Origin: Squalus acanthias
Lineage: Eukaryota
DNA length: 64,000 bases
Direction: 5' to 3'
NCBI GenBank assembly: GCA_030390025.1
Contig: CM059432.1
Span: 99,884,001-99,948,000, forward strand
Part shown: in pieces, positions 646 through 64,000 of the stretch
How the letters are laid out: the number at the start of each line of letters is the position of its first letter
How positions within the stretch are numbered: the first letter of the stretch is position 1
Program-made: the position numbers and the translations under genes
The notes under the pieces: model-generated
Databases searched by the model: none
Told to the model about the DNA's origin: nothing
The model's input: only the letters and a program-made list of their open reading frames with translations

Positions 646-799
646 CGCTGTGATAATCTGCATGAACATCTTTACGGCCTTCTGCACATGCGTGCTCTTT
701 ACCGAGGCCGCGCATGCGCAGTACCCAACAGTTGTGGCCTGCAGTATGGGCCACGCTTTCCTCGGCTCCATAAGGAGAAGGTCACTGGATTCATTGGTG

Positions 800-1740: not shown

Positions 1741-2084
1741 GTCAGGAACTCAGGGGGTAAAGAGCACGGAGAGCACAGTGGGGATGGGGGAAGAACATAA
1801 TCCAGCTCTAAAGGGGAGTGGAATGAGATGAGAATGTGATCCAGCTGATAAGATGGAGCACGTTCTTCCAACCCCATCCCCTTTACACCCGCATCATGTT
1901 CTTCCTCTCCTCTCCATAGACCTGGTTGATTTCTCAGAAAGCTTGGTGCGTGTGTGGCAAGTGACATCATTGACTGGACGAAACCCGGAAGTCATGTCAC
2001 TGTCACTATTCACTTCATACCCAATAAACCTGTTAACAATCCGTGACCCACACACAATGCCCCATCTATGGAGGGTGGGGGGCA

Positions 2085-19983: not shown

Positions 19984-20194
19984 AGAGCCCCCAGTTGGAA
20001 ATCACAGGCAACATGGTCCTGGCACATTACCCCTTGCTCCCACACCCGCCATATGCATGCACCAGTGTCACATTGAAGCAGAATGTCTCCTGATATGTGT
20101 CCTGCATATATTTGGAGGAAGATCTGCTACAAGTAATGATGTTTGGATGAGAAAAAAATAATGTTTATTACACCAACAACAATTTTCATTTGTT

Positions 20195-20435
20195 TTTATT
20201 CATTCACAGGATGTGGATGTTGCTGGCTAGGCCAGCATTTATTTCCCAACCCTAATAGTCCTTGAGAAGGTGGTGGTGAGCTGCCTTCTTGAACAGCTGC
20301 AGTCCGTGTGGTGAAGGTACTCCCGTAGTGCTGTTAGGTAGGGAGTTCTAGGGTTTTGACTGAGCGACGATGAAGGATCGCCGATATATTTCCAAGTCAG
20401 GATGGTGTGTGACTTGGAGGGGACCTTGATGGTGA
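20195..20435 (-). mobile_element. 3' tail copy of the 56503-59620 LINE family
   Basis: Reverse complement matches 59380-59615. Confidence 0.85.
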
Positions 20436-23221: not shown

Positions 23222-23479
23222 CCTCTGGATTTTGCCAGCGGAAGCGGGTTCGTTGTTCGGCTGGTTCCGATCCTGCTGCCGGTTTCAGCCGCACTGCGAT
23301 AAGGATTTTGAGTTAACTGGGCTTATTAAGCCCGTCATGCGCATTACCCGGCCCAATCAGTGGCTTCGGGTCTGCTGCTCGCCTCTGCTGACGTCTTCGA
23401 TTCAGCTGCATTTAAGGGGCCCATGCAGCCTTTGGGTTTTATTCACTTTCTGATGCTTCTCAGTGGTATTGTTTGCGAG

Positions 23480-25512
23480 ATGACTACTGCAAGAACCAAG
23501 GCTTCTCCCCGATTTGATGATGACTCCCTCCATGCTCTTGTGGAGGGAGTGAGAGGGCGCAAGGAGGTTCTGTTTCCCTCCAATGGATGTAGGAAGCCTC
23601 CTCAGCAAACCGAGGCAGCCTGGCTGCAAATTGCTGAGGAGGTGAGTGCCAGGTCTTTGTGTTTACGTACCTGGGTTCAGTGTAGGAAAAGGTTCAATGA
23701 TCTGCTAAACTCAGCAAAAGTGAGTATAACATCACACTTACCTTCAATCTGCTCCCCATCTCCTCTCATCACCATCACTCTGCATTGTCAACCTACTCCT
23801 GCACATCCCAACTTAACCTTACATCCCTTGCACCCTTAACCATCCGTCTCTCTCTATGTACAGATTCACTTCACCATTCCGCTATGCACCCCTCACACTC
23901 GCTTTCACTGTTATGCAATGACAACAACTAACAACGCACAGGGAGGGCCCTTGGTATTGGCACCTCACTCCATCTTTGTCTCCCTCTAAGCATCTATGCG
24001 ATGGATTCTCTACACTCACTCCAACATTCTCGCTCAAACTCCACTTGTGTCCCTCAGTGCAGGAAAAGAGAGCCCACAATAAGAGGGAAAGGGGGAGGAC
24101 AGGAGGAGGGCCACCGTCCATGGCGCATTTAACCAACGCTGAGGAGGCAGCTATCGAGATCGTCGGAGGTGCAGAGGAGTTGGAAGTGGGGGACGGAGAG
24201 ATGGGCGCAGTACAGCAAGCTGGTGACAGAATAGATTTGCAACTCTCCCATTTAGATTTCATGAGTGACTGATATGGCATCTGATGTTCATACTGATTGA
24301 GTTCTGATCATCTGCACAATGGGATGTGCCTGCTACGTTAATATCACATGTCTAACTCATGCCTTTACTCCCCCACAGCACCATCGAGAGCCCCCCTCCC
24401 CACTGTCCAGGAGGAAGAGCCGAAGACTCCTCAGAGGAAGCTGCAGCCTCTGAGAGAGCAGCATCAGCAGAGATGAGAGCACCCAGCACCAGTGCAGAGA
24501 CGCACACCTCGGTGGGTCCTTTGCAAGATAGATTAATGTTGTCACCTGATGTAACACAGCTCACATGTGAGCCTCAGCAGATGGTGGAGACAGGGACAGC
24601 ACTGGAAAGTCCTCGTCGGGGGCCGTTGGATGCTCCTAGCTCTGCTCAGCTGCATGTGGATGCTGAGCCTCTGGGGCCATCCAGAAAGAGAGCGGTGCTG
24701 GAGCTTCAGGAACAAGTGCAGGAGGCTCTGACAGGGTTTGCAATCACAGTAACTGCGAGTGGGCAGAGAATGGAGGAGTCCATCTCAAACATGAGCAATG
24801 CCGTGGTGCACGCAATGGTGAATGTAGGTGCCGCCATGGAAAGGATGGCAACCTCCATGGAGGACATAAATCACCAGACGCAGCATCAACATGGTAACTC
24901 TTCTAAATAGATAGTCATTGACATGAATCTTGTCATTCATGTATGAAGTAATACTGGGCGGCCTGCTGGTGGCGCTGTCCAGGGAGAGTATAAATACTCA
25001 GGCATGGGCCCATCTTGCTTAGGACATTCCTCAACAGGAACTAGTGAAGGACACAACTAGATCTCCATGTTGAAAAACAGTTGATTAAAGCTTTGTTTAA
25101 CGCTTAGATCAAGTGCCTAGTAGTTTTCTTACGTCAGTCATCTATGGAGGATAGATGGGCATCTATTGAGGAGAGAAACCAGAGGTGCATGGACGTCCTT
25201 GTTATGAGGAATGTCAGCACAGAAATGGGTCCTCATGGCCCCACTGATGTGCAGCAAGGTGCTCTCCAGCTACTTGCTAGCAGGGAAGTGCGGGTGACCC
25301 ATGAGAGGGATGTTGGTTGTCGACAACAAGGAAGTGTGGGCTCTTCGCCAAGCGCTCACACAACCATGCCACTGCGGAGCCCAAAGGACGGCTGCGATTG
25401 TCGTCTAAGCAGGTGCAGCAGAGAAGTGAGCAAGCTGCCTCTACTTCTGCTGAAGCCACATGGGGAAGCACCAAGTAGAAGCACACGTAAGAGAAAGTTA
25501 ACACACAATTAG
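23480..25512 (+). pseudogene. Harbinger Myb/SANT-like DNA-binding protein gene, 3 exons (23480-23719, 24063-24222, from 24379)
   Basis: PRFDDDSLHALVEGV..AWLQIAEEV..RTWVQCRKRFNDL, then the donor gtgagt; acceptor tgcag before EKRAHNKRERGRTGGGPP. Exon 3 is disrupted by a solo LTR. Confidence 0.85.
24919..25136 (+). mobile_element. Solo LTR (218 bp)
   Basis: Starts TGAC and ends GTCA; 5-bp duplication GTCAT at 24914-24918 and 25137-25141; TATAAATA near 24988 and ATTAAA near 25084. Confidence 0.85.
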
Positions 25513-27028: not shown

Positions 27029-27850
27029 TCTGCTGGTATATATCTCAGTTGAGGAATAGATGTTATGAGCGCTCAGTCAATGTGGGGACAAGGTATTCCA
27101 AGGAGGTCACAGTGTATATGAATCTCAGATTAAACACTTACAAGCTCAATAGATCTGCAAAATGTGTTCCAAGACCTCAAAACAGAAAGTTCTGGCATCT
27201 GAAAGTCAGCCATGTTACAGGTCCACTTTTATGCTGCAGGAGCAGCTGTCAAGAATTCAGGTAGTTGCTGAACCCGGCACAATCAGCTGGCGTGTTTGTC
27301 GCACGACGTGCAACACGTTGAAAATGTAGTAAAATGGGAAGAGCCTCTTAAAATAGGATTATCCAGGCAGTTAACAAGCTGTTAACTGCCTTAAGTGGCT
27401 CTCCCACCGCTTGGTGTCGGGTCCGATCGGAACTCGTAGACGCGACACATTGTAAAGTTGTGTGGAGGCGGGATGGTGGCGGGTTCGCTACCTGCGTCAA
27501 TCATTTTGATTTTAACTCCAGACCCGCCTCCAAACCCGCACTCTGAGTGCCTGCAAAATTGCGGCCGAAGAGTCAGCCTAGATTACTTGGAATGGGTCGA
27601 GAGTGCCACCACAGAGCTAAGGTACTACTTAAAAGGTAGACAACTGACTCCCTGAACTTCTCTCTGTTGAAAGAGGAGTGATGCAATTTTGTCCAATATC
27701 ACTCATCTATTTCAATATCTCCATCAATATAGTGGATGGCATCATACGGGACCATTTCAGTGTGTCTGTTCCATGCATTTCAGAAAATATTGCAGAATCC
27801 ATTTTGTAGATGATATTGGGGGTGAAATTTAACTTCAGAGGGAACACAAA

Positions 27851-28410
27851 CCGCCTGACTCCCCAAAGCCTTTCCACCATCTACAAGACACAAGTCAGGA
27901 GTGTGATGGAATACTCTCCACTTGCCTGAGTGCAGCTCCAACAACACTCAAGAAGCTCGACACCATCCAAGACAAAGCATCCCGCTTGATTGGCACCCCA
28001 TCCACCACCTTAAACATTCACTCCCTCCACCACCGGCATACCGTGGTTGCAGTGTGTACCATCTACAAGGTGCACTGCAGCAACTTGCCAAGGCTTCTTC
28101 GGTAGCACCTCCCAAACCCGCAAACTCTACCACCTAGAAGGACAAGGGCTGCAGGCACATGGGAACACCACCACCTCCAAGTTCCCCTCCAAGTCACACA
28201 CCATCCTGACTTGGAAGTATATCGTCATTCCTTCATCGTCGCTGGGTCAAAATCCTGGAACCCCCTCCCTAACAGCACTGTGGGAGTACCTTCATCACAC
28301 GGACTGCAGCAGTTCAAGAAGGCAGCTCACCGCCACCTTCTCAAGGGCAACTAGGGATGGGCAATAAATGCTGGCCTTGCCAGCGACGCCCACATCCCAT
28401 GAACGAATTT
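27851..28410 (+). mobile_element. 5'-truncated copy of the 56503-59620 LINE family, inserted in a small MITE
   Basis: Collinear with 59090-59610. The right flank attggccgcccgttatacacc is shared with ~63666-63690. Confidence 0.88.
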
Positions 28411-28659
28411 TTAAAAAGGGAGGTGTCGAATTGGCCGCCCGTTATACACCTCGTTTGTTTTGCGCACCCTCGGAAGTTGACATTTGTTGGACATGTTGGA
28501 GAGTTGAGGGTTGTACTGTTCAAGATGACACCTAGCCTCGCAGCTTCCTAATGAACGCGTAATTTTGCACCTCTAGCGATGGGAATCTGCTGCCATTCTT
28601 TGCCCTTTCTCTCCCAAATCTCCTCGCTTCCACTGACTAATTTCCCCTGGCATTTTAGC

Positions 28660-31345
28660 CCTAACTACAAGTTAACTACATGTTTAACTCTCTTTTAAAC
28701 TGCCATTACCCATCCCCCAACCCCCAATGCCTGCTCTCTGCTTCTCTCACTGAGCTCATGGATTCTCTTCTTAAATTTGGCTTCCAAATTCCTGGACTTC
28801 TCTGGACATCAAGACTACACTTCTGCACTGGACTATACTGGATTACACCGTAAGACTCATCTGCTGTGTCTCTGATCTGCTGCTCTGTTGCTTAAATTTT
28901 AAAGTAACTTTGGTCAGCTACAGTCCTCCCCCCACTGCTGCTGTTCTCTGCTGAGCCTGTGACTGGCTGACTGGTTCTACTGGTTTTTCAGCTTTGTTGG
29001 TTTCTGGCTAGTGTTTTACTCTCCTGGGTCGAAGTACATTTCTCTGCCGCTTTTAGATCTTTTGGTGACCTCCGACTTCGCCATCATCTTTCTGCCCCAC
29101 AACCGACACTGCACATCTTCTGGATCTTCATTCCCATGGAAATACCTCCATCCTCCGATACACTACCCTTCAGCTAGCTTCTGGATTTCATTCGCCCGCT
29201 ACACCTGTCTCCGAACTTGGACAACAGTTCATCGATGCTCCACGCCAACTCTACTCTACTTACGTCAACTTTATTCCACCACGGGACCTCTGACTTCAAC
29301 TCTGGACTCCCTCCTATTGTCTCCTCTCTATTTCCTGTTACTACCAGGATATATGTATCCTAATAATTGCTACGTAACCAGGCCTACGTAACTTGAGTTT
29401 TTCCCTGTGTCCATTTGCGTGCGTATTTTGGCTGCCGCTCTGGAACCGAGCCCACCACTTCTATATCTACTCTTTTCTCCCCCCCTTTTCTTTACTCTCT
29501 ACTCCTCCTCGAGCGCTCTCTCCTGTCATCATGCCTCCTTTCATTTCTCCCCTCTCGGGTATTCTGCCCTCCCAAATCCCTACCCCAACCCTTCATTATT
29601 CTTACACCTTCCTACTCTCCTACCGTCGTCCCAGGCTTGACTCCCTCTTAGATAAGCCTACAGCTTCACTCTGTGCCTCTCTTGGCATCCTCCGAAGGGC
29701 CCTTCGAGGCACTCGTTGCTGCCCCCTTATGAGCAGCAAACCCAACTGCCCCATCCTACTCTATCGCCGACCTTCTCACCCAGCGCGCCCACTGGGGGCT
29801 AATCTTGCCAATATCCTCCCCATCCTACTCACCCCTCCCAGCACAGTGCATACCCTGTGGACTCTGGCAGTGGATCAGCTATCACTGCCACTCTCCACAT
29901 CTCCCTTCAGAATGTCCGTTCACTTGTGAACAAGGCCATTTCCATCTATGAGCTTATTGTGGATGATTGCATCGATATCATGGCCTTGACAGACACCTGG
30001 CTGAGGGGTGATAACACCTTCCCCCTAAATGAAGCTTCTCCACCTGTCTATACCTTCCACCACGTGCCCTGCCCAAACCGCCGTGGCGGCAGTGTGGCTC
30101 TTCTCACCAAATCACACCTTGGTCTTTCCCCCCACTCCTCTGGCACTTTCTCCTCCTTTGAGCATCTCACCTTGTTCCAGCCCTCTCAACTCTCATTTAA
30201 AATCCTCGTTCTCTACTGCCCACCTAAGTACCATAATAATTTTCTCACTAAAATATTTCAGTGCTTTCCTCCCTCAGCCTCTGCACCGAGCGACTTCTCA
30301 TCCTGTGTGATTTCAACTTCGATCTCAATTCATCACGCTCTTTCTCTTCTGAGTTCACTGCCCTCCTATCCTCCCTTAATCTCTCCCTCCATGTAACGTC
30401 CCCAACCCATATTCATGGCCACCCCCTCGACCTTGCCATCTCACATGGCCTCGCAAACTCCCATCGTGTCAATCACAGATAAGGCCATCTCTGACCACTT
30501 CCTGTATCGCTCTCCACCTACATCCCCCTTCCCCCTCCCAACCCGACTTCCTTCTGTGTCTGATTCTGGAAAAAATTCTTTCCCAACTCACTTACAACTT
30601 CACTTTCAAAAGGCCAACTGTCCAGCCTTTGGCCCTCCATTCACGACATTTCTGCAGCTACCGATCTGCTCAACCACACCCTCACCACCACCTTTGATGC
30701 CCTAATCCACATTAAAACCATTGCTCTCTCTCACTCTGGCCATTCCCCCAGTACAGCCCTCATCTCCACTCCCTCAAGTCCAAGGGATGCAGACTTGAAC
30801 TGATATGGGGGACAACTGGTTTAGCCATTCACCGCCAGATCTGGCTGGTCCATATAAAGCACGATCGGATCCTGCTCTCGTCCGCCATAACTGCTCACTG
30901 TTCCAGAATCATTCTAGAATGCAAAGATAAATCCTGGCTCCTATTCTCTACTGCAAACCGTCTACTTAAACCCCTTGCCCCTCTCTCCTCCACCCTCACC
31001 TCCAACAACAAGTGCGAGGAGCTCATGGACTTCTTTGTCACTAAGATTGAGGCCATCCAATCAGCTGCCACTGCCACTTCCCTTCCTTCCCCACCGGGCC
31101 AAACTTCCACTCGTGCTGAACTCGCAGCTTTCTCCAGTTTCACTCCAATGTCCCCTCATGCCCTCTCCAAGCTCATCTTGTCCATGAGACCCACTTCCCT
31201 CTCCCTCAAACCTATTCCCACTAAACTGCTGACCACCCAACTTCCTTTTCTGGCTCCCATGTTAGCTGATATTGTTAACGGTTCTCTCTCCTCAGGTACT
31301 GTCCCCCTCTCCTTCAAATCTGCCGTCATCACCCCTCTCCTCAAA
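28660..31345 (+). mobile_element. L2-type LINE (C/T-rich sense strand), APE domain and start of RT, 3'-truncated
   Basis: LQNVRSLVNKA..DIMALTDTWL..RRGGSVAL, LILCDFN, THIHGHPLDL, ISDHFL, DFFVTKIEAIQS, PIPTKLL..FKSAVITPLLK. The 5' boundary is uncertain. Confidence 0.85.
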
Positions 31346-39924: not shown

Positions 39925-42900
39925 GTGGGTGGGGGTGGGGGGTTTAAACTAACTTGGCAGGGGGATGGAATACGGAGTGGAGCTATAGTAGGGGGTGATG
40001 CACAGCCAAATATAGAGGAAAAAACAAGTCAGCCTGGAAGGCAGAGCAAATATGTAACGGCACAAGGGAGTATGGCAAGGCTGGATGGCATTTATTTTAA
40101 TGCAAGGAGTCTTGCGAGTAAGGCAGATGAATTGAAGGTGTTGATGAACACGTGGGAGTATGATATTGTTGCTATCACAGAGACATGGTTGAGGGAGGCA
40201 GCTCAATATTCCGGGGTATAGAATCTTCAGGCGAGACAGAGGGGGGTGTAAAAGAGGAGGGGGTGTCGTAATATTAATCAGGGAGCCAATTATTGCTGTA
40301 AGGAGGGATGATATCTTAGCAGGTTCCTCTAATGAGGCCATATGGGTAGAACTTAAAAACAAAAAGGGTGCAAGCACTTTGCTGGGGGTGTACTATAGGC
40401 CCCCAAACAGTTAGGGGGAGATAGAGGAACAGATATGTAGACAAATCTCAGAGAAGTGTAGAAATAATAGGGTAATAATAGTAGGGGATTTCAACTTCCC
40501 CAATATTAACTGGGATAGTCAGAGTGTGAAAGGCTTAGAGGGTGCGGAATTCTTAAAGTGCATCCAGGAGAGCTTTTTGAGCCAGTATGTAGAAAGTCCT
40601 ACAAGAGAGGGGGTGGTACTGGACCTAATTCTAGGGAATGTAGCCGGGCAAGTGGTAGAAGTGTCAGTAGGAGAGCATTTTGGTGAGAGTGACCATAATT
40701 CGGTGAGATTTAAGGTAGTCATGGAAAAGGACAAAGATGGACCAGAAATAAAGGTTCTAAATTGGGAGAAGGCCGATTTTAATATGATAAGGCAGGATCT
40801 GGCCAAAGTGGACTGGGATCAGCTACTTGTAGGAAAATACACATCAGAGCAGTGGGAGTCTTTCAGAAAGGAAATAGAGAGAGTACAACGCCAACATGTT
40901 CCCGTAAAGGTCAAGGGTGGGACCAACAAGCCCAGGGAACCCTGGATGTCAAGGGATATACAAGAATGGATTAGGAAAAAAAGGGAGGCTTTTGGAAGGT
41001 ACAAAGGACTAAAAACAGTGGAAGCCGTAGAGGACTATAGAAAGTGCAGGGGGGTACTTAAAAAAGAAATTAGGAGAGCGAAGAGGGGGCATAAAAAAAC
41101 ACTGGCGGGCAAAATAAAGGAAAATCCCAAGGTGTTTTATAAGTATATTAAGGGCAAGAGGATAACCAGGGAAAGAGTAGGGCCCATTAGGGACCAAAGT
41201 GGCAATCTGTGTGTAGAGCCGAAAGATGAGGGTGAGGTTTTAAATGAATATTTTGCATTTGTGTTCACTATGGAGAAGGACGATGTAGGCATAGAAATCA
41301 GGCAGGGGGATTGTGATATACTTGAACAAATTAGTATTGAGAGGGAGGAGGTACCGGTGATTTTAGCGGGCTTAAAAGTGGATAAATCCCCAGGCCCAGA
41401 CAAGATGTATCCCAGGCTGCTGTGTGAGGCAAGGGAGGAGATTGCAGGGGCTCTGACACAAATTTTCAGATCCTCTCTGGCCATAGGGGAGGTGCCAGAA
41501 GACTGGAGGACAGCTAACGTAGCACCATTATTCAAGAAGGGTAGTAGGGATAAACCAGGGAATTACAGGCCAGTGAGCCTAACATCAGTGGTAGGGAAAT
41601 TATTGGAAAAATTTCTGAGGGACAGAATTAGTCTCCACTTGGAGAGACAAGGATTAATCAAGGATAGTCAGCATGGCTTTGTCAGGGGGAGATCATGTCT
41701 GACCAATTTGATTGAATTTTTCGAGGGGGTGACTAGGTGCGTGGATGAGGGTAGTGCAGTTGATGTAGTCTACATGGACTTCAGTAAGGCTTTTGACAAA
41801 GTCCCGCATGGGAGACTGGTCAAGAAGCCCATGGGATCCAGGGCAATTTGGCACATTGGATCCAAAATTGGCTTAGTGGCAGGAGGCAGAGGGTGATGGT
41901 CGAAGGTTGTTTTTGTGACTAGAAGCCTGTGTCCAGTGGTGTACCGCAGGGATCGGTACTGGGTCCTTTGCTGTTTGTAGTGTACATTAATGATTTAGAT
42001 ATGAATGTAGGAGGTATGATCAGTAAGTTCGCAGATGACATGAAAATTGGCGGAGTGGTAAATAGCGAGGAGGGAAGCCTCAGGCTACATGACGATATAG
42101 ACGGGTTAGTCAGATGGGCAGAACAGTGGCAAATGGAATTTAACCCTGAAAAGTGTGAGGTAATGCATTTTGGGAGAATTAACAAGGCAAGGGAATACAC
42201 AATGAATGGTAGGACCCTAGGAAGGACAGAGGATCAGAGGGACCTTGGTGTGCATGTACATAGATCTCTGAAGGCAGCAGGACAGGTAGATAAGGTGGTT
42301 AAAAAGGCATATGGGATACTTGCCTTCATTAGGCGAGGCTTAGAATATAAGAGCAAGGAGGTTATGATGGAGCTGTACAAAACGCTAGTTAGGCCACAGC
42401 TGGAATACTGTGTGCAGTTCTGGTCGCCACACTATAGGAAGGATGTGATTGCATTGGAGAGGGTGCAGAGGAGATTCACCAGGATGTTACCTGGGCTGGA
42501 GCGCTTCAGCTATGAAGAGAGACTGGACAGGCTGGGGTTGTTTTCCTCAGAGCAGAGAAGGCTGAGGGGGGACCTGATTGAGGTGTACAAAATTATGAGG
42601 GGCATAGATAGGGTAGATAGAAAGGAACTTTTCCCCTTAGTAGAGGGGTCAATAACCAGGGGGCATAGTTTCAAGGTAAGGGGCAGGAGGTTTAGAGGGG
42701 ATTTGAGGAAAAACTTTTTCACCCAGAGGGTGGTTGGAATCTGGAACTCACTGCCTGAAAGGGTGGTAGAGGCAGGAACCCTCACAACATTCAAGAAGCA
42801 TTTAGATGAGCACTTGAAACGCCATAGCATACAAGGCTACGGACCAAGTGCTGGAAAGTGGGATTAGAATAGATAGGGCTTGATGGCCGGCGCGGACATG

Positions 42901-42947
42901 ATGGGCCGAAGGGCCTCTTTCTGTGCTGTATAACTCTATGACTCTAT
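39925..42947 (+). mobile_element. Young CR1 LINE, nearly complete ORF2 (APE plus RT) with a few lesions; ORF1 absent
   Basis: YFNARSL..AITETWL; long ORFs 40526..41896 and 41929..42867 (YMDFSKAFDKVPH, GVPQGSVLGP, KFADD); ctatgact tail repeats. Confidence 0.97.
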
Positions 42948-44074: not shown

Positions 44075-44470
44075 TACATAGATTTACATACAAGTTACAG
44101 TACACAAACAGTCCATTCGTCCCAACTGGTTTATGCCCGTGTTTATGCTCCACAGGACCTCCTCCCACTCTACTTCATCTAACCCTATCAGCATATTCTT
44201 CTATTCCTTTCTTGCTCATGTATATAGCTAGTTTCCCATTAAATGCATCTATGTTGTTCACCTCAACTACTCCATGTAGTAGCAAGTTCCACATTCTAAC
44301 CACTCTCTGGGTTAAGAAGTTTCTCCTGATGTTGGATTTATTAGTGATTCTCTTATATTTATGACCAACAAGTGGAAACATCTTCTCTACATCTACCCTA
44401 TCAAATACCTTCATAATTTTAAAAACCTCTATCAGATCACCCCTCAGCCTTCTCTTTTCCAGAGAAAAGG
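44075..44470 (-). mobile_element. CR1 3' fragment
   Basis: FSLEKRRLRGDLIEVFKIM..TQRVVRMWN in ORF 44175..44579(-). Confidence 0.9.
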
Positions 44471-45362
44471 TCCCTTCTATAATGCATAGGTTCAACAATA
44501 TTCTAAAGAATTTCACATGTTCACAATGGCTCATTGAGTGTATCCAATGAATAACAGACCAGGAAGGACAAAGGTTCAATCATCTTGCTGTGCTGATTTG
44601 ACTCATCTCAGCTAGGGCTACAGTTGGGGCACTACAATTGGCCTCAGCACCCCTGATTTAGGGAGGGGTTAAAAAAAATGTCAGCTAAAAACTGATTGAG
44701 GTGACGGTGATCCACCCACCACCCCAACCTGCTCCCAGTATAAAATAGCTTGCAAATACCAAATGCCAAGACACAAACATGAGTCCTGGCCACTTGGATG
44801 AGGAACCTAAGGATGACCAGGACCAGTGGAAGACTACCCCAATTCACAGTCAAAGGGGGAAAAATTCAGTACCTTAGCACCTCCCGTTAGCACCAGCAGA
44901 TGGTGCTAACGGGGCACTAGAGCATTATCGCCGGGGCAAGGCGAATCCAACGGCACATGCCAATTCCCGCCTCCCCCCCCCCCATAATGCCGCCGCTAAC
45001 AGTTATCAGCGGGAGCCTCAACGCTATGTGGAGTGTGACATCAGTGAGTGTGCAATATTCGCTGTCCGCCACATCTGCGAAATTGATTGTTGCCACCTAC
45101 CTTAGTGCCTGGAGTAAACAGTGACAGGGAGAGCTGGCGTAAAGCAGCAGGAAGGCGGCTCCAGGGATGTTATTTAAAGGGATCATCAGTAATGAGTTGC
45201 AGCTGTAGCTTAGTGGAGTTCCAGTGCTTTCTTGTCAGTTTCACATAGAGCAACAGTCTCATTCCGTAATTTCAAGGTTATTTAGTGTCAGGAGTGTTGT
45301 GGCAACTAAAAAGTAGCTAAATTTATTCATTAAAAAATCAAACTGCCACACTTGGTTACATT

Positions 45363-46501
45363 AATGGGGGCTGTAATGGCAGTCGACCTCGCCCTCCAGG
45401 ATCTATGGCAGACGGAGCGGATGCAGCGAGAAATGGGAGGAGGAGGGCCATCAGGGCTCTCAACCGGAGACCATACCCTCCAAGGGTATTCCGAGAGAAC
45501 TTCTCCTACCTCCAATTAAGCGAGGAGCATTGTATTACAAGGCTCCGCTTCACCAAGGAGGTGGTCGCAGAAATCTGCCACCTCCTGCAACCAGACCTTC
45601 AGTCTCAGGGCGACCACAGCTCTCTCAGTGTCAGTCAAGGTCACCGTCGACCTCAATTTCTTCGCTAGCAGGTCCTTCCAGTCTGCAACAGGAGACATAG
45701 CTAACATCTCACAGTTCGCCATCCATTGCTGCATCCGGGAGGTCACAGAGGCTCTCTACAGTAGGAGAAGGGACTATATTTCCTTCCCTATCAGAGAGAA
45801 GCAGGACGAGCATGGTTGTGGCTTTGTCAGGATAGCGGTATTCCCCATGGTGCAGGGCACCACATAACAATCCTGAGATCTTCCGTAACCGCAAAGGCTA
45901 CCACTCACTTAATGTCCAGTTGGTGTGCGACCACAGACAGCTAATCCTCAATATCAATGCCCGCTTTCCTGGCAGCAGCTACGATGTCTTCATCCTGCAC
46001 CAGACTGGTGTGCCAGCACTCTTCCAGCCATCACGTCAAGTTCGCGGCTAGCTGGTCGGAAACTAGGGCTTTCTGGTCTCCATCTGGCTCATGACTCCCC
46101 GCCGCAACCCCAACACTCCTGCCCAGCACTCATATAATGAGAGCCATGCCGTCACCAGGAATATCATTGAGCAGATCATCAGGGTGCTCAAGCAATGGTT
46201 CCACTGTCTTGACCCCTCGGGAGGAGCCCTCCAGTACTCGGTTGAGCGGGTGTCACATTTCGTGATGGTCTGCTGCATGCTCCACAACCTGGCCATCATG
46301 ATGGCCCAGCCCTTGCCACCAGGGATTGCGGGACCACCTCAGGAGGAGGAAGAAGGCGAGGAGGAGGAGGAGGACGAGGAGGAAGAGGAAGATGAGGAGG
46401 ACGAGGGGGAGGAGGAACAGGAGCGAGTGAGGTGGCAGTCACTCAATCGGCCTTCCGGAAGGGCGGTCCGTGACCGTTGCATCAGACTGCAGTTTGAATG
46501 A
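45363..46501 (+). pseudogene. Harbinger DDE transposase, frameshifted
   Basis: RPYPPRVFRE..CITRLRFTKEVVAEICHLLQ, VKVTVDLNFFASRSFQ, TRNIIEQIIRVLKQWFHCLD..CCMLHNLA and an acidic tail. Confidence 0.92.
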
Positions 46502-46666
46502 ATTAAACTCCAGATTCCCGTTGCTCACCACATTCCCAATTTTCCATCCCTGTCGCAGGCCATATCACAGTGCAAAGCTGAAATGAGACACAACACAAAA
46601 GAATCCAAACTGAATTAATAAATTTATCAAAAATCAGTGAACACACATTTGCAACAAAAATATTAA

Positions 46667-49600
46667 CTATTCACTCTTGTGCAATCCCTTAGTACCTCTT
46701 GTTACTGTGCCTTTGCCTACTCTAGTGCTCCTACGAAGTGTTGGCCCAGTGGCTGCAGCATGGCTGGTGGAAGGCTGCTGAGTGTCCATGCGGGAGACCT
46801 CAGATGGCCTTGCAGGACACCCTTGACCAGCTCTGGACCTGGAGCCCTGGCCTAGACTGCACCACCTCAGCATGGGCGGCAGCAGTCTGGGCTGGCTGGA
46901 TGACGGGCAGCGACAAGAGCAATGGCGGAGTGTCAGTGGTGGGAGCAGGAATGTTTTTATCCTGCAATGGAAGCTGCCAGATCATCCATCACACGTGGCA
47001 TGAGGTCTGGGTTTGGGTTGCCACGGTCTCTCTGGGACTCTACCATCCTTTGCAGACTGGAAATGATGGGCTCCATGGTGTGCGTAGAGTCTTGTGAAAT
47101 GTTGGAGGCGAACTCCTCCACACTCCTTATCATTGCCGAGAGGCTCTCGGGCACCCTTGCCATTGCACCTATCATCTCTGTGTGCATGCCCATCACCCTT
47201 CTTCTAAACGCCTCCCCATCAAGGTCCTGTGCAGCAGAACTGACGCGCGAACTCGCCCTCCAGGGATCTTGCCCTAGAGCTACCCTTTCCCCCTGGCCTT
47301 GCTGCAGCCCATTCGCCCCCAGTGCCTCACCCTGTGCAGATCCTGCTACTATACTAGCCTCTAAAGAACGCGTAGTGCCAGTATCTGAGCTGGTGCCTGC
47401 GGGTGAGACATGTAGTGACGTGGTGTGTGCTTCTTCCTCCTCTTCTCCCGCCTCGCTCTCTCCAGTGCTTTCAGGGACAGGCTGCTCAGGTGCTTGCTCA
47501 TTATCTGAAAGCATAAAGGCACGAGAGTTGGGTTAAGGTGAGCGGAGGGGGGCAGGAAGGGAGAAATGCATGCATACAGCATGATTAGCTGGAACGTGCA
47601 AACGCTTGTGGGGTGAGGGGGAAATGGGATGTGAGAAGAAGGAGCAGAGATGAACGGCGCCCACCACCAGGTGCCCAATAATCTGCAGCACTCGATTCTC
47701 CAGCGCAGACAGTGGTTGGGTGTCAGCTTGTCCCCCACCTGTACCCTCCTGCTCCTTCCTGTTGTGAACCTCCTTGGCCTGCAAGAGAAAGGAAAGTGTG
47801 TGAGTGAGTGTGAGCACTGTTTGGGTGATGTGCCTGCCATAGTTGAATAGCTCTCATTGTGTGCAAGGTGTGAGATGTGGGTGTGAGTGTTGGTAGGTAG
47901 AGGTTGTTGGTGGGTGAGTGCTGGGGGTGTGGTGCTTTGGGCAGTGTGTGCAGACTGAGGTTCAGATGGTGGTATGTATCATTTGTTGAAGCATTGACTC
48001 ACCCTGACCACCCGAGTGAGGTCGTTAAATTTCTTCCTGCACTGTGTGTGGGTCCTGGGGACCACAGTGCTGCCCGAGACGTGCTGTGCTACCTCCCTCC
48101 ACATGGCGTGGAAGACTTGCAGCAAGGGCCTCCTGCCACTTGCTGGGTACATAAGATCAATGGCTGATCGTCTGCCTCAATTCCATTCACCGGCCCTATC
48201 GCCATATCCCTTGATGCCTTTACTAGTCAGAAATCCATCGACTTCTGTTTTGAATATACCCAATGATTGAGCCTCCACATCCCTCTGGGGCAGAGAATTC
48301 CAAAGATTCACCACCCTCGGTGTGAAGAAATTTCTTCTCATCTCAGTCCTGAATGGCCTACCCTTTATCCTGAGGCCGTGGCCCCTGGTTCTAGACTCCC
48401 CAGCCAAGGGAAACATTCTCCCAGCATCCCTGTAATAATCAAGCTCTGTAATAATTTTGTATGCTTCAATGAATCCCTTCTCATTTTCTGAATTCAAGAG
48501 AATACAGGCCTAGTTTACTCAATCTTTTCTCATACGACAGTCCCGCCATCCCAGGAATCAATCTTGTGAACCTTTGTTGCACTCCCTCTATGGCAAGTAT
48601 ATCCTTTCTTAGGTAAAGAGACCAAAATTGTACACAGTACTCCAGGTGTGGTCTCACCAAGGCCCTATATAATTGGAGTAAGACTTCTTCACTCCTGTAC
48701 TCAAATCCGCTTGTAATGAAGGCCAGCATACTATTTGCCTTCCTAATGGCTTGCTGCACCTGCACATTCACTTTCAGTGACTCATGTACAAGGACACCCA
48801 GGTCCCTTTAAGCATCTGCATTCCCCAATCTTTCACCATTTAGGAAATACTCTGCCTTTTTGTTTTTTCTAGCGAAGTGGATAACTTTACATTTATCCAC
48901 ATTATATTCCATCTGCAATGTTCTCGCCCACTCACTGAGCCTGTCGAGATCCCCTTGAAGCCTCTTCACATCCTCTTCACAACTGACACTGCCACCTCGC
49001 TTTGTATCATCAGCAAATTTGGAAATGTTACATTTAGTCCCCTCATCCAAATCATTGATATAGATTGTGAATAGCTGGGGCCCAAGCACCGATCTTTGCG
49101 GTACCCCACTAGTCATAGCCTGCCATCCTGAAAAAGACCCGTTTATCCCTACTCTTTGTTTTCTGTCTGTTAACCAATTCTCAATCCATGCTAGTATATT
49201 ACCCCCAATTCCATTTGCCCTCATTTTGTTCTTGTGTGGGACTTTATCGAAGGCCTTCTGAAAATCCAGATACACCACATCTACCGGTTCCCCTTTGTCT
49301 ACTCCACTAGTTACATCCTCAAAGAACTCCAATAGGTTTGTCAAACAGGATTTCCCTTTCATAAATCCATGTTGACTCTGCCCAATCTTACTATTAGTTT
49401 CTAAGTGCCCAGTTATTGCACCCTTTATAATAGATTCCAGTATTTTCCCAACTACTGATGTGAGGCTAACAGGTCTGTAGTTCCCTGTTTTCTCTCTGCC
49501 TCCTTTCTTAAATAGCGGGATTACATTTGCTATCCTCCAATCTGCAGGAACCGTTCCAGAATCTATAGAATTTTGGAAGATGACAACCAATGCGTCCACT

Positions 49601-56502: not shown

Positions 56503-56575
56503 GGGGACGGTAGCATAGTGGTAATGTCACTGGGCTTATAATCCAGAGACCGTGAGTTCAAATCCCACCACGGCA
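56503..56575 (+). promoter_or_regulatory. tRNA-derived internal RNA polymerase III (type 2) promoter at the head of a LINE
   Basis: A box TAGCATAGTGG (56511-56521) and B box GAGTTCAAATCCC (56554-56566). D-arm, anticodon arm CTGGG-CTTATAA-TCCAG and T-arm GTGAG-TTCAAAT-CCCAC are recognisable; the acceptor stem is unpaired. Confidence 0.85.
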
Positions 56576-59500
56576 GCTGGGGAATTTAAATTCAGTTAAT
56601 TAAATAAATCTGGAATTAAAAAGCTAGTGTCAGTAATGGTGACCATGAAACTATCGGATTGTCATAAAAACCCATCTGGTTCACTAATGTCCTTTAGAGA
56701 AGGAAATCTGCCATCTTTACCTGATCTGGCCTATATCTGACTCCAGACCCACAGCAATGTGGTTGACTCTTAACTGCCCTCTGAAATGGTCTAGCAAGCC
56801 ACTCATTTGTAACAAACAGACCATGTGGCATTGATCTAGGCAATGGCTACAGACATGGCAACGGCGCACCCAGCCAGTTGACCCTGCAAAGTCCTCCTCA
56901 CCAACATCTGGGGACTTGTGCCAAAATTGGGAGAGCTGTCCCACAGACTAGTCAAGCAACAGCCTGACATAGTCATACTCACAGAATCATATCTTTCAGC
57001 CAATGTCCCAGACTCCTCCATCACCATCCCTGGGTATGACCTGTCCCACCATACAGTCGGGAAGGAGTGGCCCTGGGAGTCCTTAACATTGACTCTGGAC
57101 CCCATGAAGTCTCGTGGCTTCAAGGTCAAGCATGGGCAAGGAAACCTCCCTCTGCTGATGAATCAGTACTCCTCCATGTTGAACACCACTTGGAAGAAGC
57201 ACTGAGAGTAGCAAGGGCACAGAATGTACTCTGGGTGGAGGGTGTCAATGTCCATCACCAAGAGTGGCTCGGTAGCACCACTACTGACTGAGCTGGCCGA
57301 GTCCTGAAGGACATATCTGCCAGTCTAGGTCTGCGACAGGTGGTGAGAGAACCAACAGGAGGGAAAAACCTACTTGACCTCATCCTCACCAATCTACCTG
57401 TCGCAGATGCATCTGTCCATGACAGTATTGGTAGCAGTGACCACCGCAAAGCCATGTGGAGACGAAGTCCTGTCTTCACACTGAGGACACCCTCCATCGT
57501 ATGCTGTGCCACTGCCACCGTGCTAAATGGGATAGATTCAGAACAGATCTAGCAGCTCAAAACTGGGCATCCATGAGGTGCTGTGGGGCAGCAGCAGAAT
57601 TGTATTCCACCACAATCTGTAACCTCATATCCCTCACTCTACCATTACCATCAAGCCAGAGGATCAACCCTGGTTCAACAAGAGTGTAGAAGAGCAGCAC
57701 CAGGCATACCTAAAAATTAGGTGCCAAACAGGGGAAGCTACATGCATGCTAAAAAGCGGAAGCAGCATGCTATAGACAGGGCTAAGCGATCCCACAATCA
57801 ACGGATCAGATCAAAGCTCTGCAGTCCTGCCACATCCAGTTGTGAATGGAGGTGGACCATTAAACAACTAATGGCAGGAGGAGGCTCCATGAATATCCCC
57901 ATCCTCAATGATGGTGGAGCCCAGCACGTGAGTGCAAAATACAAGGCTGAAGCGTTTGCAACCATCTTCAGCCAGAAGTGCCGAGTGGATGATCCAAATC
58001 AGCCTACTCCTGAGCTCCCCACCATCACAGAAACCAGTCTACAGCCAATTCGATTCGCTCCACGTGATATCAAGAAACGGCTGAGCACACTGGATACAGC
58101 AAAGGCCTATGGGCCCCGACAACATCCCGGTTATCATACTGAAGACTTGTGCTCCAGATTTAGCCGTGCCTATAGCCAAGCTGTTCCAGTACAGCTACAA
58201 CACTGGCATCTATCCGACAATGTGGAAAACTGCCCAGGTATGTCCTGTCCACAAAAAGCAGGATAAATCATATCCGGCTAATTACCGCCCCATCAGTCTA
58301 CTCTCAATCATCAGCAAAGTGATGGAAGGTGTCATCAACAGTGCTATCAAGCAGCACTTACTTACCAATAACCTGCTCACTGATGCCCAGTTTGGGTTCT
58401 GCCAAGACCACTCGGCTCCAGACCTCATTACAGCCTTGGCCCAAACATGGACAAAGGAGCTGAATTCCAGAGATGAGGTGAGAGTGACTGCCTTTGACAT
58501 CAAGGCAGCATTTGACCGAGTGTGGTACCAAGGAGCCCTAGTAAAACTGAAGTCAATGGGAATCGGGGGAAAAACTCTCCACTGGCTGGAGTCATACCTA
58601 GCACAAAGGAAGATGATTGTGGTGGTTGAAGGTCAATCATCACAGCCCCAGGACATCGCTGCAGGAGTTCCTCAGGGCAGTGTCCTAGTCCCAACCATCT
58701 TCAGATGCTTCATCAATGACCTTCCCTCCAAAATAAGATCAGAAATGGGGATGTTCACTGATGATTGCACAGTGTTCAGCGCCATTCACAATTCCTCAGA
58801 TAATGAAGCAGTCCATGCCCGCATGCAACAAGACCTGGACAACGTTCAGGCTTGGGCTGATAAGTGGCAGTTAACATTCGCGCCACAGAAGTGCCAGGCA
58901 ATGACTATCTCCAACAAGCGAGAGTCTAACCACCACCCCTTGACATTCAACGGCATTACCATCGCCGAATGCCACTCCATCAACATCCTGGGGGGTTACC
59001 ATTGACCAGAAACTTAACTGGACCAGCCACATAAATACTGTGGCAACAAGAGCAGGTCAGAGGCTAGCTATTCTGTGGTGAGTGTCTCACCTCCTGACAC
59101 CCCAAAGCCTTTCCACCATCGACAAGGCACAAGTAAGGAGTGTGATGAAATACTCTCCACTCTCCACCATCCAGGACAAAGCACCTCATTGGCACCCCAT
59201 CCACCATCTTAGACAACATTCACTCCCTCCACCACTGGCATACCATGGCTGCAGTGTGTACCATCTACAAGATGCACTGCAGCAACTTGCCACCGCTTCT
59301 TCATCAGCACCTCCCAAACCCGCGACCTCTTCAACCTAGAAGGACAAGGGCAGCAGGCGCATGGGAACACCACCACCTCCAAGTTCCCCTCCAAGTCTCA
59401 CACCATCCTGACTTGAAAGTATACTGCCGATCCTTCATCGTCACTGGGTCAAAATCCTGGAACTCCCTCCCTAACAGCACTGTGGGAGTACCTTCACCAC

Positions 59501-59620
59501 AGGGCCTGCAGCAGTTCAAGAAGGCGGCTCACCACCACCTTCTCGAGGGCAATTAGGGATGGGCAATAAATGCTGGCCTTGCCAGTGACGCCCACATCCC
59601 ACAAACGAATAAAAAGAAAA
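56503..59620 (+). mobile_element. CR1-group-like LINE with a tRNA-derived head and a single APE-RT ORF (~56843-59556, now frameshifted); no ORF1
   Basis: KVLLTNIWGL..PDIVILTESYL, LLDLILTN..GSSDH, GPDNIP, NYRPISLLS, AFDIKAAFDRVW, GVPQGSVL, MFTDDCT; A-rich 3' end. Confidence 0.93.
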
Positions 59621-59917
59621 TACCATATTTACAAACCATCACCTTTAAACTGTATGCAATTATAGTTATAATAGCGCTTCAGTACAAGAATAGTGGCATT
59701 TTATTACATTTCTGCTTGTCTACTAACTTCAATAAGAATATAAGGAAACAAAGGATAAGAAAATGCTAGCAAATCATGTAGTATGTACCTTATTGATGAC
59801 CCCACCTGATTTATTTAATGTCCTGTGGAAAATTTCTACTTGAGTAATTGCTGATCTCCAACAGAATCAAGCAAGACTCTAAACTACTACCCACCTCAAC
59901 ATCTCCACTACAGATGA

Positions 59918-61700
59918 TCATAGGAACATAGGAACAGGGCTAGGCCATTCAGCCTCTCAAGCCTGTTGTGCCATTCAATAGATCATTGTTGATCTGTACC
60001 TCAACTCCATTTACACGCCTTTGCTCCATATCCCTTGATACCCTTACCTAACAAAAATCTATTGATCGCAGTCTTGAAAATTTCAATTGAGCCCCAGCAT
60101 CCACAGCCTTTTTGGGGGAGAGAGTTCCAGATTTCCACTACCCTTTGTGTGAAAAAGTGCTTCCTGATTTCATTCCTAAACGGCCTAGCTCTAATTTGAA
60201 GATTATGCCCACGTATTTCTGGACTCCCCCATCAGAGGAAATAGTTTCTCTGTATCTAACTTATCGAATCCCTTAATGAATTTCATTACCTTGATTACGT
60301 CACCCCTCAACCTTCGAAACTCAAGGGAATACAGGCCAAGTTTATGCAACCTGTTGTCATCATTTAACACTTTATGCAATGTTTCCTTTAAATTGCATAA
60401 AGTGTGGTCTGCAGCTCCTGCCCAGCCAGCTCACCGGCTTTTAAATAGGAAAAACCACGCGTGCGCGGTATTTTGAATGGGCCCCGCACCCCAAAAAAAA
60501 TTAACAGGAGCATTGCCTTTAAGTCCTTGTATTACTATGGCGAATCTGCGCTGTATCCCTTTCAAAGTCAATGGGTCATAATTTGCGGCTCCTACGGGTG
60601 CATACGAGGTGTGTACGCAGCCGTAGGGGCCGCACAAGTTCCGGGTTTAGGCATGCACTGTGCGCATCCCCAGGACAGATCGCACGCATCCCCGAGAAAA
60701 GGGCATCCGCGGGCGGAGAGTTGGGCTATTTGCCCAACTTCTGCCCAGCGAATGCCCGTGAAATTCTTACGTCTGGTAAAAGCGTAAGGCCTGCTTTTAC
60801 TAGCATAAGAGATTTAAAAAAGCTGAAAAATAAAATTTTATCAATAATTTATACATTTAAAAACTTGTAAGTTTATTTTTAGCCCCTTTAAAACATGTAA
60901 ATTTATTTTTTCAAAAAATTTAGTTTTTGTTTTAAATATTTAATTAAATGGCATTTTAATTAATTTTAACTATGATTTTTTTTTTAATTTGATGTCTCGG
61001 TGTATTTTTTGGGGTATTCCCATTCATACTTATGGGGTTTCCATACATACAGAATCCCGATAAGTATGAATGGGGATTCCCTTCTGTCATTCGTAGGGCT
61101 GGCCCACGTGATCCCAGGGTGCATGCGAATCACTTGCGCCCCTGGGATACGTGGGCCTCTTCCCGTGGGTTCCCGGAGAGCCCCAGGACCGCGAGTCTCC
61201 GTGGGTCCTGAGGCCCCAGGTACGCGGGCATTTTATTTGCGGATCGGAGGCATTTCCCCGTGGGAAGCCAATATATAATTTCTGAGCTTCAGTGCTCAAA
61301 ATTGAACGCAGTATTCCAGATGGGGTCTGACCAAGGCTCTGTACAACTGAAGCATCACTTCCTCATTTTTAAATGCCAATCCCCTTGAGATAAAGACCAA
61401 CATTCCATTAGCCTTTTTGATTACTTTTTATATATCTGCACTTGCTTTTAGTGATTTTTCCTCCAGCTCTAGTCACTCACCATTTAAAAAATATTCTGAT
61501 TTGTCTTTCTTAGATCCAAAGTGGATGACCTCATACTTCCCCACATTGAACTCCATCTGCCAAAATTTTGCCGACTCACTTCATCTGTCTGTGTTCCTTT
61601 GAAACTTCCTGCTCCTGTGTGAACTACTTACTGTGCCTCCCAACTTAGTATCTTCTGCAAGCTTTGATATACAACTCTCTTTTCCTTCATCCAAGTCATT
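59918..61700 (-). mobile_element. Fragmented CR1 3' region interrupted by other insertions
   Basis: Reverse-complement CR1 tail at ~59920-60360, KGIQRRFAIVIQGL at ~60500-60565 and RT fragments at 61285-61700. Confidence 0.8.
60573..61272. mobile_element. MITE family B relative, opposite orientation to 52939-53648
   Basis: Shares ggcccacgtgatcccaggg..ccctgggatac and an internal attcata..tatgaat hairpin. The right end is uncertain. Confidence 0.7.
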
Positions 61701-61714
61701 GACGAAGTTGTGCT

Positions 61715-61996
61715 AGCTGCCAGACAGCTGTGAGCACACTGCCAAAAGAGAACTCCCTCCCCTACAACCTATTCCACCAAGAAGGACAAGAGCAGCAATG
61801 TCGTGGGAAAACCATCATCTCCAAGTTTCCCTCAAAGTCACATATTATCCTGACTTGGACGTATATCACTGTTTCCTTATCTTTGCTTTGTCAATACCCT
61901 GGAATTTCCTATAGAACACCATTATGGAGCACAATCACCACGGGGGCTGCAAAACTTCAAGGAGAAGGAACAGCATCACCTTCTCAGGGTAACTAA
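61715..61996 (+). mobile_element. Older, diverged 3' copy of the 56503-59620 LINE family
   Basis: agaaggacaagagcagca..ccaagtttccctcaaagtcaca..atcctgacttgga aligns with 59335-59555. Confidence 0.75.
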
Positions 61997-64000
61997 CGAC
62001 AGTCAATTTATACAAGTAAAACAAATAGCAGCATGCCTTTTATGGGCCTCCTTCCCTCGGGGTCTAAAAGCTGTGTGGGCAACATGTTGACGGAATATAA
62101 ACAAGACACAGACATTAAAGTCGGCTGAAGCCTCCCCAGGAGTCACTGGTGTGGGAAGGCTATCAGCTCTCCCTGGCTTCCACTAGGGAGTTAAAATCCA
62201 CCCTGGGAGTCTGTTCTGCATATCTACTATGGAGGAAAAAGGTACAATTTCTAACCTTGATTGAGAATGATTGATATTGAATGTGTAGATGTAAGCAGCT
62301 AAATTAACTTAGATTGTGAGTGCAGATCTACAGAACATATAGCTCTGGATCAAGTTCTTTTTTCTAATGAATATATACATTTTAGGAAAAAATAGTTCTT
62401 GTAAGACATACTAGAGTACAGAGTTGCAAAATAATGTCACAAGGAAATACTCCTAATTATATGCGTCTTTTATTTAAAAGGAATGGAACTGCACCAATGG
62501 ACTTAAGTAAACTACAAACTAAAACATGTTCTTCATTCGATTAATCTACCGGCGTGGAGTTACCGCAAGGGGTGCAATCGGCAAAATGCGTCCAGAATGC
62601 GCTGGAGACTGTGTCGGTTTTGTCAAGGTGAAGTTACGCCCAAGTTTCCATGCAAACTCATTAGCATAAGCCCGAATGTAAAATCTCCCATGAACCAGCG
62701 CAAGCAAGCAGCGTAATCGATCGTAATCGATTGGTGACTGGAACAGAGCATCTTCCAGCATCACAAAGCAGAGTGGGATTGCCAGTAAATGAGCTATTCT
62801 TCAACTGACTGATTTAATGCTCTTGGTCTTACTTTGTAATTGACTGCTGATCACAGCTGTCTTTAACTAATCATCAGTTTGGAGTCAGGACCAAACGTGG
62901 CACCGAAGCAAAGGAGAGTAAGACTTCCCGGAGAAGATAATCTCACTCCACTGTACATTGGTGTTCGGTTGGGCCTTGACATCTGATTTATACTCCTGAT
63001 TTTACTTTTGGATGACCGACTGGTGGAGCGCATTGGTCGGCCGCCCATTCTGGCGGGGAGCAGGTCCCCGCGATTTTGAGGCCCCGGACTCATTTAAATC
63101 TAGCAGGCGACTTGCAGTGCGCCAAACAGACTTCCCAGTGCAGATCACCTGATTGGGTCCTCAAATTCAGGCCAGCAAGAAAAGTTGCGGGGGGCGGTGG
63201 GCGGAGGGATTGTCATCACGGAGGGTGGGGATCCTAGGGCGGTATCGGCCCAGATTATTTTTGTGGGCCCTGGAGGACACCAGAACCTGGGGGACCGGTT
63301 TCGACCTAAAATGGCAATCAGATTCCTGTTTACACCAAAGGTGCAGATTTCCATATTAAAAGGAGCCAATCGCTTGAAACAGGTGGGCACTTTGCGCACT
63401 CTGTGGTAGGCGCCTTTCAAAATGGAGCCAGCCACATCGCCGGTGTTAATAAGGCTATAGCCCCATTTTGAGGCTATTACCGCCCCCTTAATGCTAGGCA
63501 AAGGCTGTCAAAATTGACCCCCAAAATGTTGGTCTGAGTTAGAAACCACATTGAACTGATGCTAAACTTTTAACTTGTAACACCAGCTATCAACACATTT
63601 AAAAACCCATCAAATTAGCATTGTAGATCATCTATCAAGGAATGGGTGAAAACTTGTAGTTGCAGATTGGCCGCCCGTTATACACCCCACATCGATTTTA
63701 CTTTCCCTTGGAATCAATGGTAAAGAAAATCAGGCAGGGTAAATACTGTAATGGGTAGCCGATCAACTACCACCAGATTTCTGCCCCCACCAAAAGTAAA
63801 AATTACCCACACGTTTCCTCAGACAGAATATACTGGAAACATTCAGTAGGTCTGTCAGCATCTGTGGTGGGAACAGATTGCATGTACAATGAATAGCTTT
63901 GCAATATGGTGCACCTTTTTCTTAAGTTTTAATTAAATCATCAATAACAAACTAAGATAGCCAGGCACACATCTTCCAAACAGTAGTGCACATAAACCAT

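Follow-up and report, generated by a model that had tools for sequence, protein, structure and literature searches.

Retrotransposons are divided, by the rule given in PMC5786205 and PMC10886601, into LINEs, which are coding and transcribed by RNA polymerase II (Pol II), and SINEs, which are non-coding and transcribed by Pol III. SINEs are described as unable to encode protein, a LINE source of conserved SINE bodies is described as not found so far (PMC5786205), and the origin of these bodies is called unknown (PMC5786205, PMC10886601, PMC4824008). The lengths of SINEs, 100-700 bp, have been ascribed to weak Pol III processivity, and the autonomous partners of TRIMp3 elements are said to have to use Pol II (PMC10886601). 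Single-ORF elements are known in the CR1 group (PMC6740152), and for non-LTR elements IRES-type non-AUG initiation is raised in PMC3894237 as a possibility only. The Deu-SINEs SacSINE1 and LmeSINE1 are reported from sharks, chimaera and coelacanth (PMC5499810, PMC2746220). According to PMC5499810, LmeSINE1 of the coelacanth has head, Deu domain and tail in common with SacSINE1, and tail homology links SacSINE1 to a partner, L2-2_CM.

A tRNA-headed, single-frame LINE family in the dogfish genome

The stretch of DNA analysed here, referred to as the window, comprises 64,000 nucleotides of the 3.7 Gb genome of Squalus acanthias and holds the copy laid out in Table 1. Its tRNA-like head with A and B boxes, noticed at first from the letters only, lies above the Rfam gathering threshold (38.4 bits against 29, at 56510-56569), and ARAGORN called no tRNA gene at this head. 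The APE domain gives a weak match in the window copy and is recognized in a sister copy through PF14529 (E 6e-12) and PF03372. The window copy differs from the family consensus at 138 of 3109 aligned bases and by 20 indels, 15 of which are frameshifting; missing from it are 20 nt of the head, through a deletion at 56551, and 35 nt of the ORF start. This copy is dead. It shares its first base with the other copies and remains colinear with them as far as the A-rich tail; the 3' end of the element lies at about 59620. We take the body (56576..56812) to be the Deu domain, and the labels SacSINE1 and Zenon, used below for comparison, are likewise our assumption.

Table 1. Parts of the element copy in the window and the first T-run downstream of it
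Feature	Position in the window	Strand	Basis or remark
Whole element: decayed full-length copy of a tRNA-headed single-ORF non-LTR retrotransposon, 3.3 kb	56503..59620	+	
tRNA-derived head	56503..56575	+	Rfam RF00005, 38.4 bits; 20 nt shorter than the family head
Pol III A box	56511..56521	+	sequence
Pol III B box	56554..56565	+	sequence
Non-coding body, common to short SINEs of the genome	56576..56812	+	SINE loci L101-L130
Remnant of the AUG-less Arg-rich N-terminal extension	56813..56881	+	subfamily consensuses; contains the ATGs at 56843 and 56855, which are private to this copy
APE endonuclease domain, frameshifted in the window copy	56882..57460	+	PF14529, PF03372 in L068
Reverse transcriptase domain	58253..58963	+	PF00078, E 1e-36
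Stop codon, 3' UTR stem-loop and short A-rich tail, common to SINEs	59554..59620	+	
First downstream TTTT, in flanking DNA	59699..59702	+	inferred end of any Pol III transcript

A head-ORF junction confined to this locus had been named as one outcome that would speak against the original prediction. Exact-pattern searches of the genome, whose counts are lower bounds, returned at least 2,717 head-to-ORF (body-to-APE) junctions, at least 3,973 APE starts and at least 1,627 heads, with no match for the reversed-pattern controls. The family consensus, built from 30 fetched places and the window copy and refined at its 5' end with 54 copies, is 3313 nt long; a leader of 329 nt is followed by a frame of 973 codons and a 3' UTR of 62 nt. 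Full-length members have one 5' end in common and run from the tRNA head through the Deu-like body and one 973-codon APE-RT frame to a stem-loop tail, and most of 39 further head-bearing places start at the same first base and stay colinear up to the tail. When 29 loci were picked by APE similarity, head sequence stood upstream in all of them; 26 start no more than 10 nt from the first base of the head, and the remaining three at positions 35-41. Among the first 30 APE starts on contig 1, which were picked without regard to the head, 19 extend to the first base, eight begin inside the leader and three inside the ORF start. By eye, one of these last three sits behind CR1-like sequence.

The lack of an ORF1 in the window copy holds for the family: APE and RT homology are present, and no ORF1 was found upstream in the two samples of 29 and 30 loci, 59 ORF starts altogether. 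Flanks upstream of the first G are unrelated among copies. Regular target-site duplications were not found in 28 full-length copies, one of which has 9 nt and five of which have matches of 4-5 nt. The 3' tail folds as a stem-loop (z -4.4 against 150 dinucleotide shuffles), and in 80 tails the number of T before the A run varies from one to five, with a single T in 44. These T residues were considered as a mark of Pol III termination followed by polyadenylation and rejected as such, since all five T5 tails carry exactly five A, a pairing that looks like a palindrome-forming mutation.

Copies are dispersed and many are 5'-truncated, and they have the structured 3' end in common. With APE and RT in one frame, dispersed copies and no LTR, the family belongs to the APE-type non-LTR retrotransposons (LINEs), in the CR1/L2 group. 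It has the 5' tRNA head with A and B boxes that characterizes SINE2 elements, and it is neither short nor non-coding nor non-autonomous as these are. No intact copy was found among those seen, the longest open frame in 129 scored places being 759 aa. A query with window positions 61600-62050 for divergent sister families in the genome gave only 3' fragments of 76-80% identity.

Outside this genome, shark protein fragments 58-81% identical are found in Rhincodon, Heptranchias, Heterodontus and Cetorhinus, and half or more of one copy's words are present in 14 sequencing runs under five species labels; on these two grounds we regard the element as shark-wide. Two public contig sets, which we guess to be RNA, span the whole element in contigs that carry no start, strand or level, and depth in the public contig sets increases toward the 3' end of the element.

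Selection on the frame and its translation start

Across 98 copies, variants present in several copies give pN/pS values of 0.36 for transitions and 0.32 for transversions, against 1.00 and 0.97 for private variants. The ORF was kept under purifying selection in the source elements, which in this sense were autonomous. Seventy copies cover the leader, and in these its variants co-segregate with those of the ORF, alongside much mosaicism (Mantel r 0.30; highest of 2000 permutations, 0.20). These data show that head-bearing elements were the sources of the family and that head and ORF were passed on jointly from one source lineage to the next.

After 40 copies enriched for older variants had been added, a total of 128 copies could be sorted into four clusters, which lie 2.4-5.8% away from their respective consensus sequences and all have a head and an intact frame. 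The subfamily consensuses differ by 30-97 nt only, and the four are for this reason not independent tests; two duplicate loci were dropped, and one copy (L153/L372) is counted twice in the enlarged set. Lineage-shared variants occur at none of the nine non-CpG A-box sites and none of the 11 B-box sites, that is, at 0 of 20 sites against 8 of 51 in the comparison, and this invariance is weak evidence for transcription by Pol III.

The original prediction started translation at in-frame ATGs at 56843 and 56855, followed by one TGA. Neither these codons nor an AUG-based start belongs to the family. The frame that joins them to the APE domain arises via a 1-nt deletion at about 56874 found in the window copy only, no subfamily consensus has an ATG at either site, and the ATG at 56855 is the CpG decay product of an ACG. 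With an in-frame ATG start ruled out by the subfamily consensuses and by this private deletion, the family is left with no in-frame AUG ahead of the APE domain, and all four subfamilies have their first in-frame Met at codon 287. Between the body and the APE start, 38 of 55 sequences have no in-frame ATG, 11 have an open one and six have one with a stop behind it, the distribution that scattered indels and CpG decay would produce.

In codons 15-29, all seven shared variants are synonymous in the ORF frame, against one of ten in codons 1-12. Judged by this substitution pattern, the Arg-rich N-terminal extension is coding. Because codons 15-29 are constrained and no in-frame ATG precedes codon 287, initiation would be non-AUG and would lie past the body. 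Of the near-cognate codons, we infer ACG at codon 4 to be the likeliest start; in 93 copies this codon reads ACG in 42, ACA in 26 and ATG in 17. A frameshift from an overlapping +1 upstream ORF was discarded as an alternative, because a stop interrupts that frame in the youngest subfamily and the nearer ATG is missing from the older ones. The leader contains eight upstream ATGs and no usable in-frame one, an arrangement that agrees poorly with cap-dependent scanning. IRES-like stability was looked for in the leader and was not found (folding z -0.3 to 0.5, with the body at about 0).

Terminator content and the transcribing polymerase

The sense strand of the window copy is free of TTTT, as first read: no run lies between those at 56495 and 59699, and this 3204-nt gap is the longest in the window, which has 399 T-runs. 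The companion observations were likewise borne out, with AAAA common on the same strand (16 runs inside the element) and TTTT frequent in the CR1 at 39925-42947 (17 runs, including all three positions that had been cited). The further claim, that T4 runs were lost by selection, stands in part. The depletion is ancestral, with no TTTT in any of the four subfamily consensuses, and goes far beyond that of related LINEs, whereas TTTT taken alone does not set the consensus ORF apart from synonymous-codon shuffles (0 against 1.8, P 0.11). With codons resampled from fourfold-site composition, 3.7 would be expected in the ORF (P 0.017), and AAAA in the ORF is normal in relation to the codon shuffle. 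For the window copy by itself, 4.9 TTTT runs are expected from mononucleotide shuffles (P of zero 0.0025) and 2.0 from dinucleotide shuffles (P of zero 0.11). Copies average 0.13 TTTT per kb compared with 4.7 AAAA per kb.

The depletion extends to weaker signals. T3VT2, T2VT3, T3VT, TVT3 and T2VT2 are described as partial terminators of human Pol III and isolated T3 as inactive (PMC3141230). The first four are absent from the sense strand of the family consensus and T2VT2 occurs once, while the opposite strand has 6, 2, 15, 7 and 19 of them, respectively. Windows with four T in five positions number one in the ORF, against about 9.5 in codon shuffles (P 0.004), and TTT numbers five against 13.3 (P 0.002), with A-runs normal. 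Phe makes up 1.85% of the protein, the fourth lowest share among 83 proteins of at least 900 aa, and is encoded by 15 TTC and three TTT codons. In 80 related ORFs from metagenomes, the observed-to-expected ratio of four-in-five windows is 0.69-1.33 and their density at least 10.4 per kb, against 0.11 and 0.34 per kb here, the relatives being a loose control because they are from different hosts, have identities of mostly 25-45% and belong in many cases to other LINE lineages.

Several observations weaken the case. One-step routes have turned into a shared variant in 0 of 39 cases for TTTT and 7 of 126 for AAAA, a difference that is not significant by itself. Shared synonymous changes that make weak T clusters are not underrepresented (3 of 38, against 21 of 544 for the others), and one of the three creates TCT3 in 18 of 111 copies, the window copy included. 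For TCT3, about 50% termination is reported in human extracts (PMC3141230). A CR1 ORF of this genome is itself mildly depleted compared with its own shuffles (TTTT 5 against 10.1; four-in-five windows 30 against 44), and one relative, L254, with 20% T and no detected head, has one TTTT in 953 codons and 11 four-in-five windows.

From these sequence patterns we consider the family to be probably a Pol III-transcribed autonomous LINE. TFIIIC would bind the A and B boxes, Pol III would transcribe the 3.3 kb and continue into the flank up to the first T-run, and translation of the uncapped RNA would be cap-independent and begin at a non-AUG codon shortly after the Deu body. The APE-RT protein would then bind the 3' stem-loop in cis, with insertion via target-primed reverse transcription, and internal deletion would give rise to SINEs mobilised in trans by the same protein. 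The weak processivity invoked for SINE lengths counts against a Pol III transcript of 3.3 kb.

A distinctly less probable account is that a single-ORF LINE took a SINE as its new 5' UTR and that Pol II starts at or near the head, the poverty in T then reflecting base composition or other selection at the RNA level. LINEs are reported to swap promoters commonly (10.1101/2022.11.04.512097), tRNA-like sequence is contained in RTE-1_DAn and related elements (PMC5786205), and composition is described as varying widely among LINE clades (10.1101/788562); the CR1 control and L254 are likewise poor in T-runs, and AATAAA hexamers lie at the 3' end of the element. However, the depletion here is T-specific and several-fold deeper than in any of the 80 relatives, and the 5' end of the element falls on that of the SINEs. 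Two more AATAAA hexamers, at +121 and +132, and the eight leader ATGs would be unhelpful to a capped Pol II mRNA.

Labour could also be split, with Pol III making the template RNA and the protein coming from rarer, capped Pol II read-through of the same loci. Such a division, which we find rather improbable, would explain the loss of terminators without cap-independent translation and agrees with the missing IRES-like fold, but it needs non-AUG initiation all the same, and cis preference most simply explains why purifying selection goes with the head across the lineages. That a SINE happens by chance to lie next to a truncated LINE at the window locus, conceivable as SINEs with the same head and 5'-truncated LINE pieces are both abundant, is refuted by the 2,717 junctions of the same form and by the head-ORF linkage, and retains practically no probability.

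Short SINEs, protein relatives and known systems

An exact pattern joining the body end to the tail occurs at 283 places, with many different breakpoints. The 30 fetched SINE loci consist of part or all of the leader and the last 70-95 nt of the LINE; where the head is retained, the variants are mostly those of older LINE lineages, and the start lies at or close to the same base. A few bases that lie 3' of the body in the LINE persist at some junctions, and body-tail joints are seen in three public contig sets. By their composition, the short head-plus-tail SINEs look like internal deletions of the LINE, although they may be secondary deletions of a longer SINE, or the LINE may have captured a SINE head. 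Internal deletion is described as repeatedly yielding derivatives, with Persaeus from Zenon as an example (PMC6740152).

The nearest non-shark proteins are 36-45% identical, and many are about 950 aa long on contigs of 3-5 kb; this suggests that a broad clade of single-ORF elements exists. Most protein relatives in the range of 900-1030 aa likewise lie on contigs of 3-5 kb, the named sources including sponge, crab, nucleariid and butterfly. BLAST found a match to the head in none of 160 relative loci, a set from which the DNA of the closest proteins was left out, and relaxed ARAGORN matches in these loci were dismissed as noise. No B box or A-plus-B pattern was detected upstream of the relatives' ORFs, where many contigs end near the ORF start, and the metagenome, prokaryote-contaminant and viral contigs searched contained no head-bearing relatives outside sharks. 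In 159 of the 160 relative loci, the longest ORF contains TTTT.

The data establish the architecture, abundance, autonomy, AUG-less frame and terminator poverty of the family. A wider interpretation is tentative: a Pol III coding retrotransposon with cap- and AUG-free translation may have been active across sharks, with the Deu domain as its working leader, in the role of a translation or RNP element, and SacSINE1-type Deu-SINEs as its internal deletions. Because LmeSINE1 has these three parts of SacSINE1 (PMC5499810), namely head, Deu domain and tail, the element could be older than the divergence of cartilaginous from bony fishes, and such an ancient element, if real, could be the reason why the Deu domain is conserved, for which there is so far no explanation. 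A messenger of 3.3 kb made naturally by Pol III would violate the LINE/SINE polymerase rule and would serve, in a vertebrate, as a test case for long transcription by Pol III and for translation free of cap and AUG; it would also offer a source and a function, both testable, for a conserved SINE body. In the literature searched, with Repbase and Dfam outside the search, no description of a Pol III-type coding LINE was found, and a database entry without a publication may exist.

Among described elements, the lepidopteran Zenon of the CR1 group is similar in having about 3.3 kb, one APE-RT ORF and a poly(A) end (PMC6740152), a likeness to the Zenon clade that rests on description, as the RT tree made here holds unnamed relatives only. 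Its derivative Persaeus, which carries Zenon's 5' end, is described as having neither tRNA homology nor a Pol III promoter, unlike the shark element (PMC6740152). RTE-1_DAn and the elements related to it are LINEs that contain tRNA-like sequence, as here, but they are placed in the RTE clade (PMC5786205). Cassandra, Helenus and Ajax (TRIMp3) are also retroelements other than SINEs with a Pol III promoter; in contrast to the shark LINE, they are described as non-coding LTR elements of 0.3-1.3 kb (PMC10886601). The closest resemblance in layout is to SacSINE1 and LmeSINE1, with their tRNA head, conserved body and LINE-type tail, the former being present in a shark genome (PMC5499810, PMC2746220). 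SacSINE1 is given as 463 bp (PMC5499810), against about 400-430 bp for the short forms found here with the same layout. It is described as non-coding and non-autonomous, whereas the element reported here has a 973-codon APE-RT frame between body and tail. Even if Pol II transcribes it, the family would be the likely autonomous partner of the shark Deu-type SINEs, with which it has both ends in common.

Copies and fragments of the family

Besides the main copy, the window holds four 5'-truncated 3' pieces of the tRNA-headed family, which are 73-88% identical to it, and several other long stretches free of TTTT or AAAA (table below). Among the fetched family copies L031-L069 and L132-L160, most carry several deletions of 10-40 nt, often flanked by short direct repeats, despite a substitution difference of just 3-7%. 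Inverted element segments are present in copies L134, L151 and L342. At the 3' end, 2-5 T often directly precede the A-tail in 80 family copies; T5 occupies this position in five of the 80 tails, all five being T5A5 palindromes.

Locus L069 contains a LINE of a different, CR1-like kind, inserted within a copy of the family; it is probably a young element, and its ORF served as a control.

Family fragments, run-free stretches and the inserted CR1-like ORF
Feature	Location	Strand	Remark
3' piece of family	window 380-648		5'-truncated
3' piece of family	window 20189-20434	(-)	5'-truncated
3' piece of family	window 27850-28408		5'-truncated
3' piece of family	window 61765-61995		5'-truncated
Stretch without TTTT	window 220-2346		GA-rich tandem array inside
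Stretch without TTTT	window 23437-25124
Stretch without TTTT	window 44455-46540
Stretch without AAAA	window 28413-30199
Stretch without AAAA	window 46656-48624
CR1-like LINE ORF	L069:2483-5230	(-)	916 codons, uninterrupted

Relatives of the encoded protein

In the tree, protein P0012 groups as sister to the family (support 0.81); it is Phe-poor. Phe makes up only 1.7-1.9% of P0020, P0023, P0024 and P0028, although AT-codon residues are plentiful in them, and these four may represent a separate lineage that avoids T runs. For the near relatives P0001, P0003, P0006 and P0009, the called starts fall inside the APE domain; as in the family, these may lack an upstream ATG.

Eukaryotic LINE ORFs also occur on contigs from metagenome-assembled genomes of bacteria and archaea (L253-L332), probably as host contamination; many of these genomes belong to bivalve or sponge symbionts.

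The tRNA-derived head

At about positions 27-68 of the consensus, the family head carries a tandem pair of similar hairpin segments that resembles a duplicated anticodon arm. One of the two has been lost from the window copy through a 20-nt deletion, which restores a tRNA-like box spacing.
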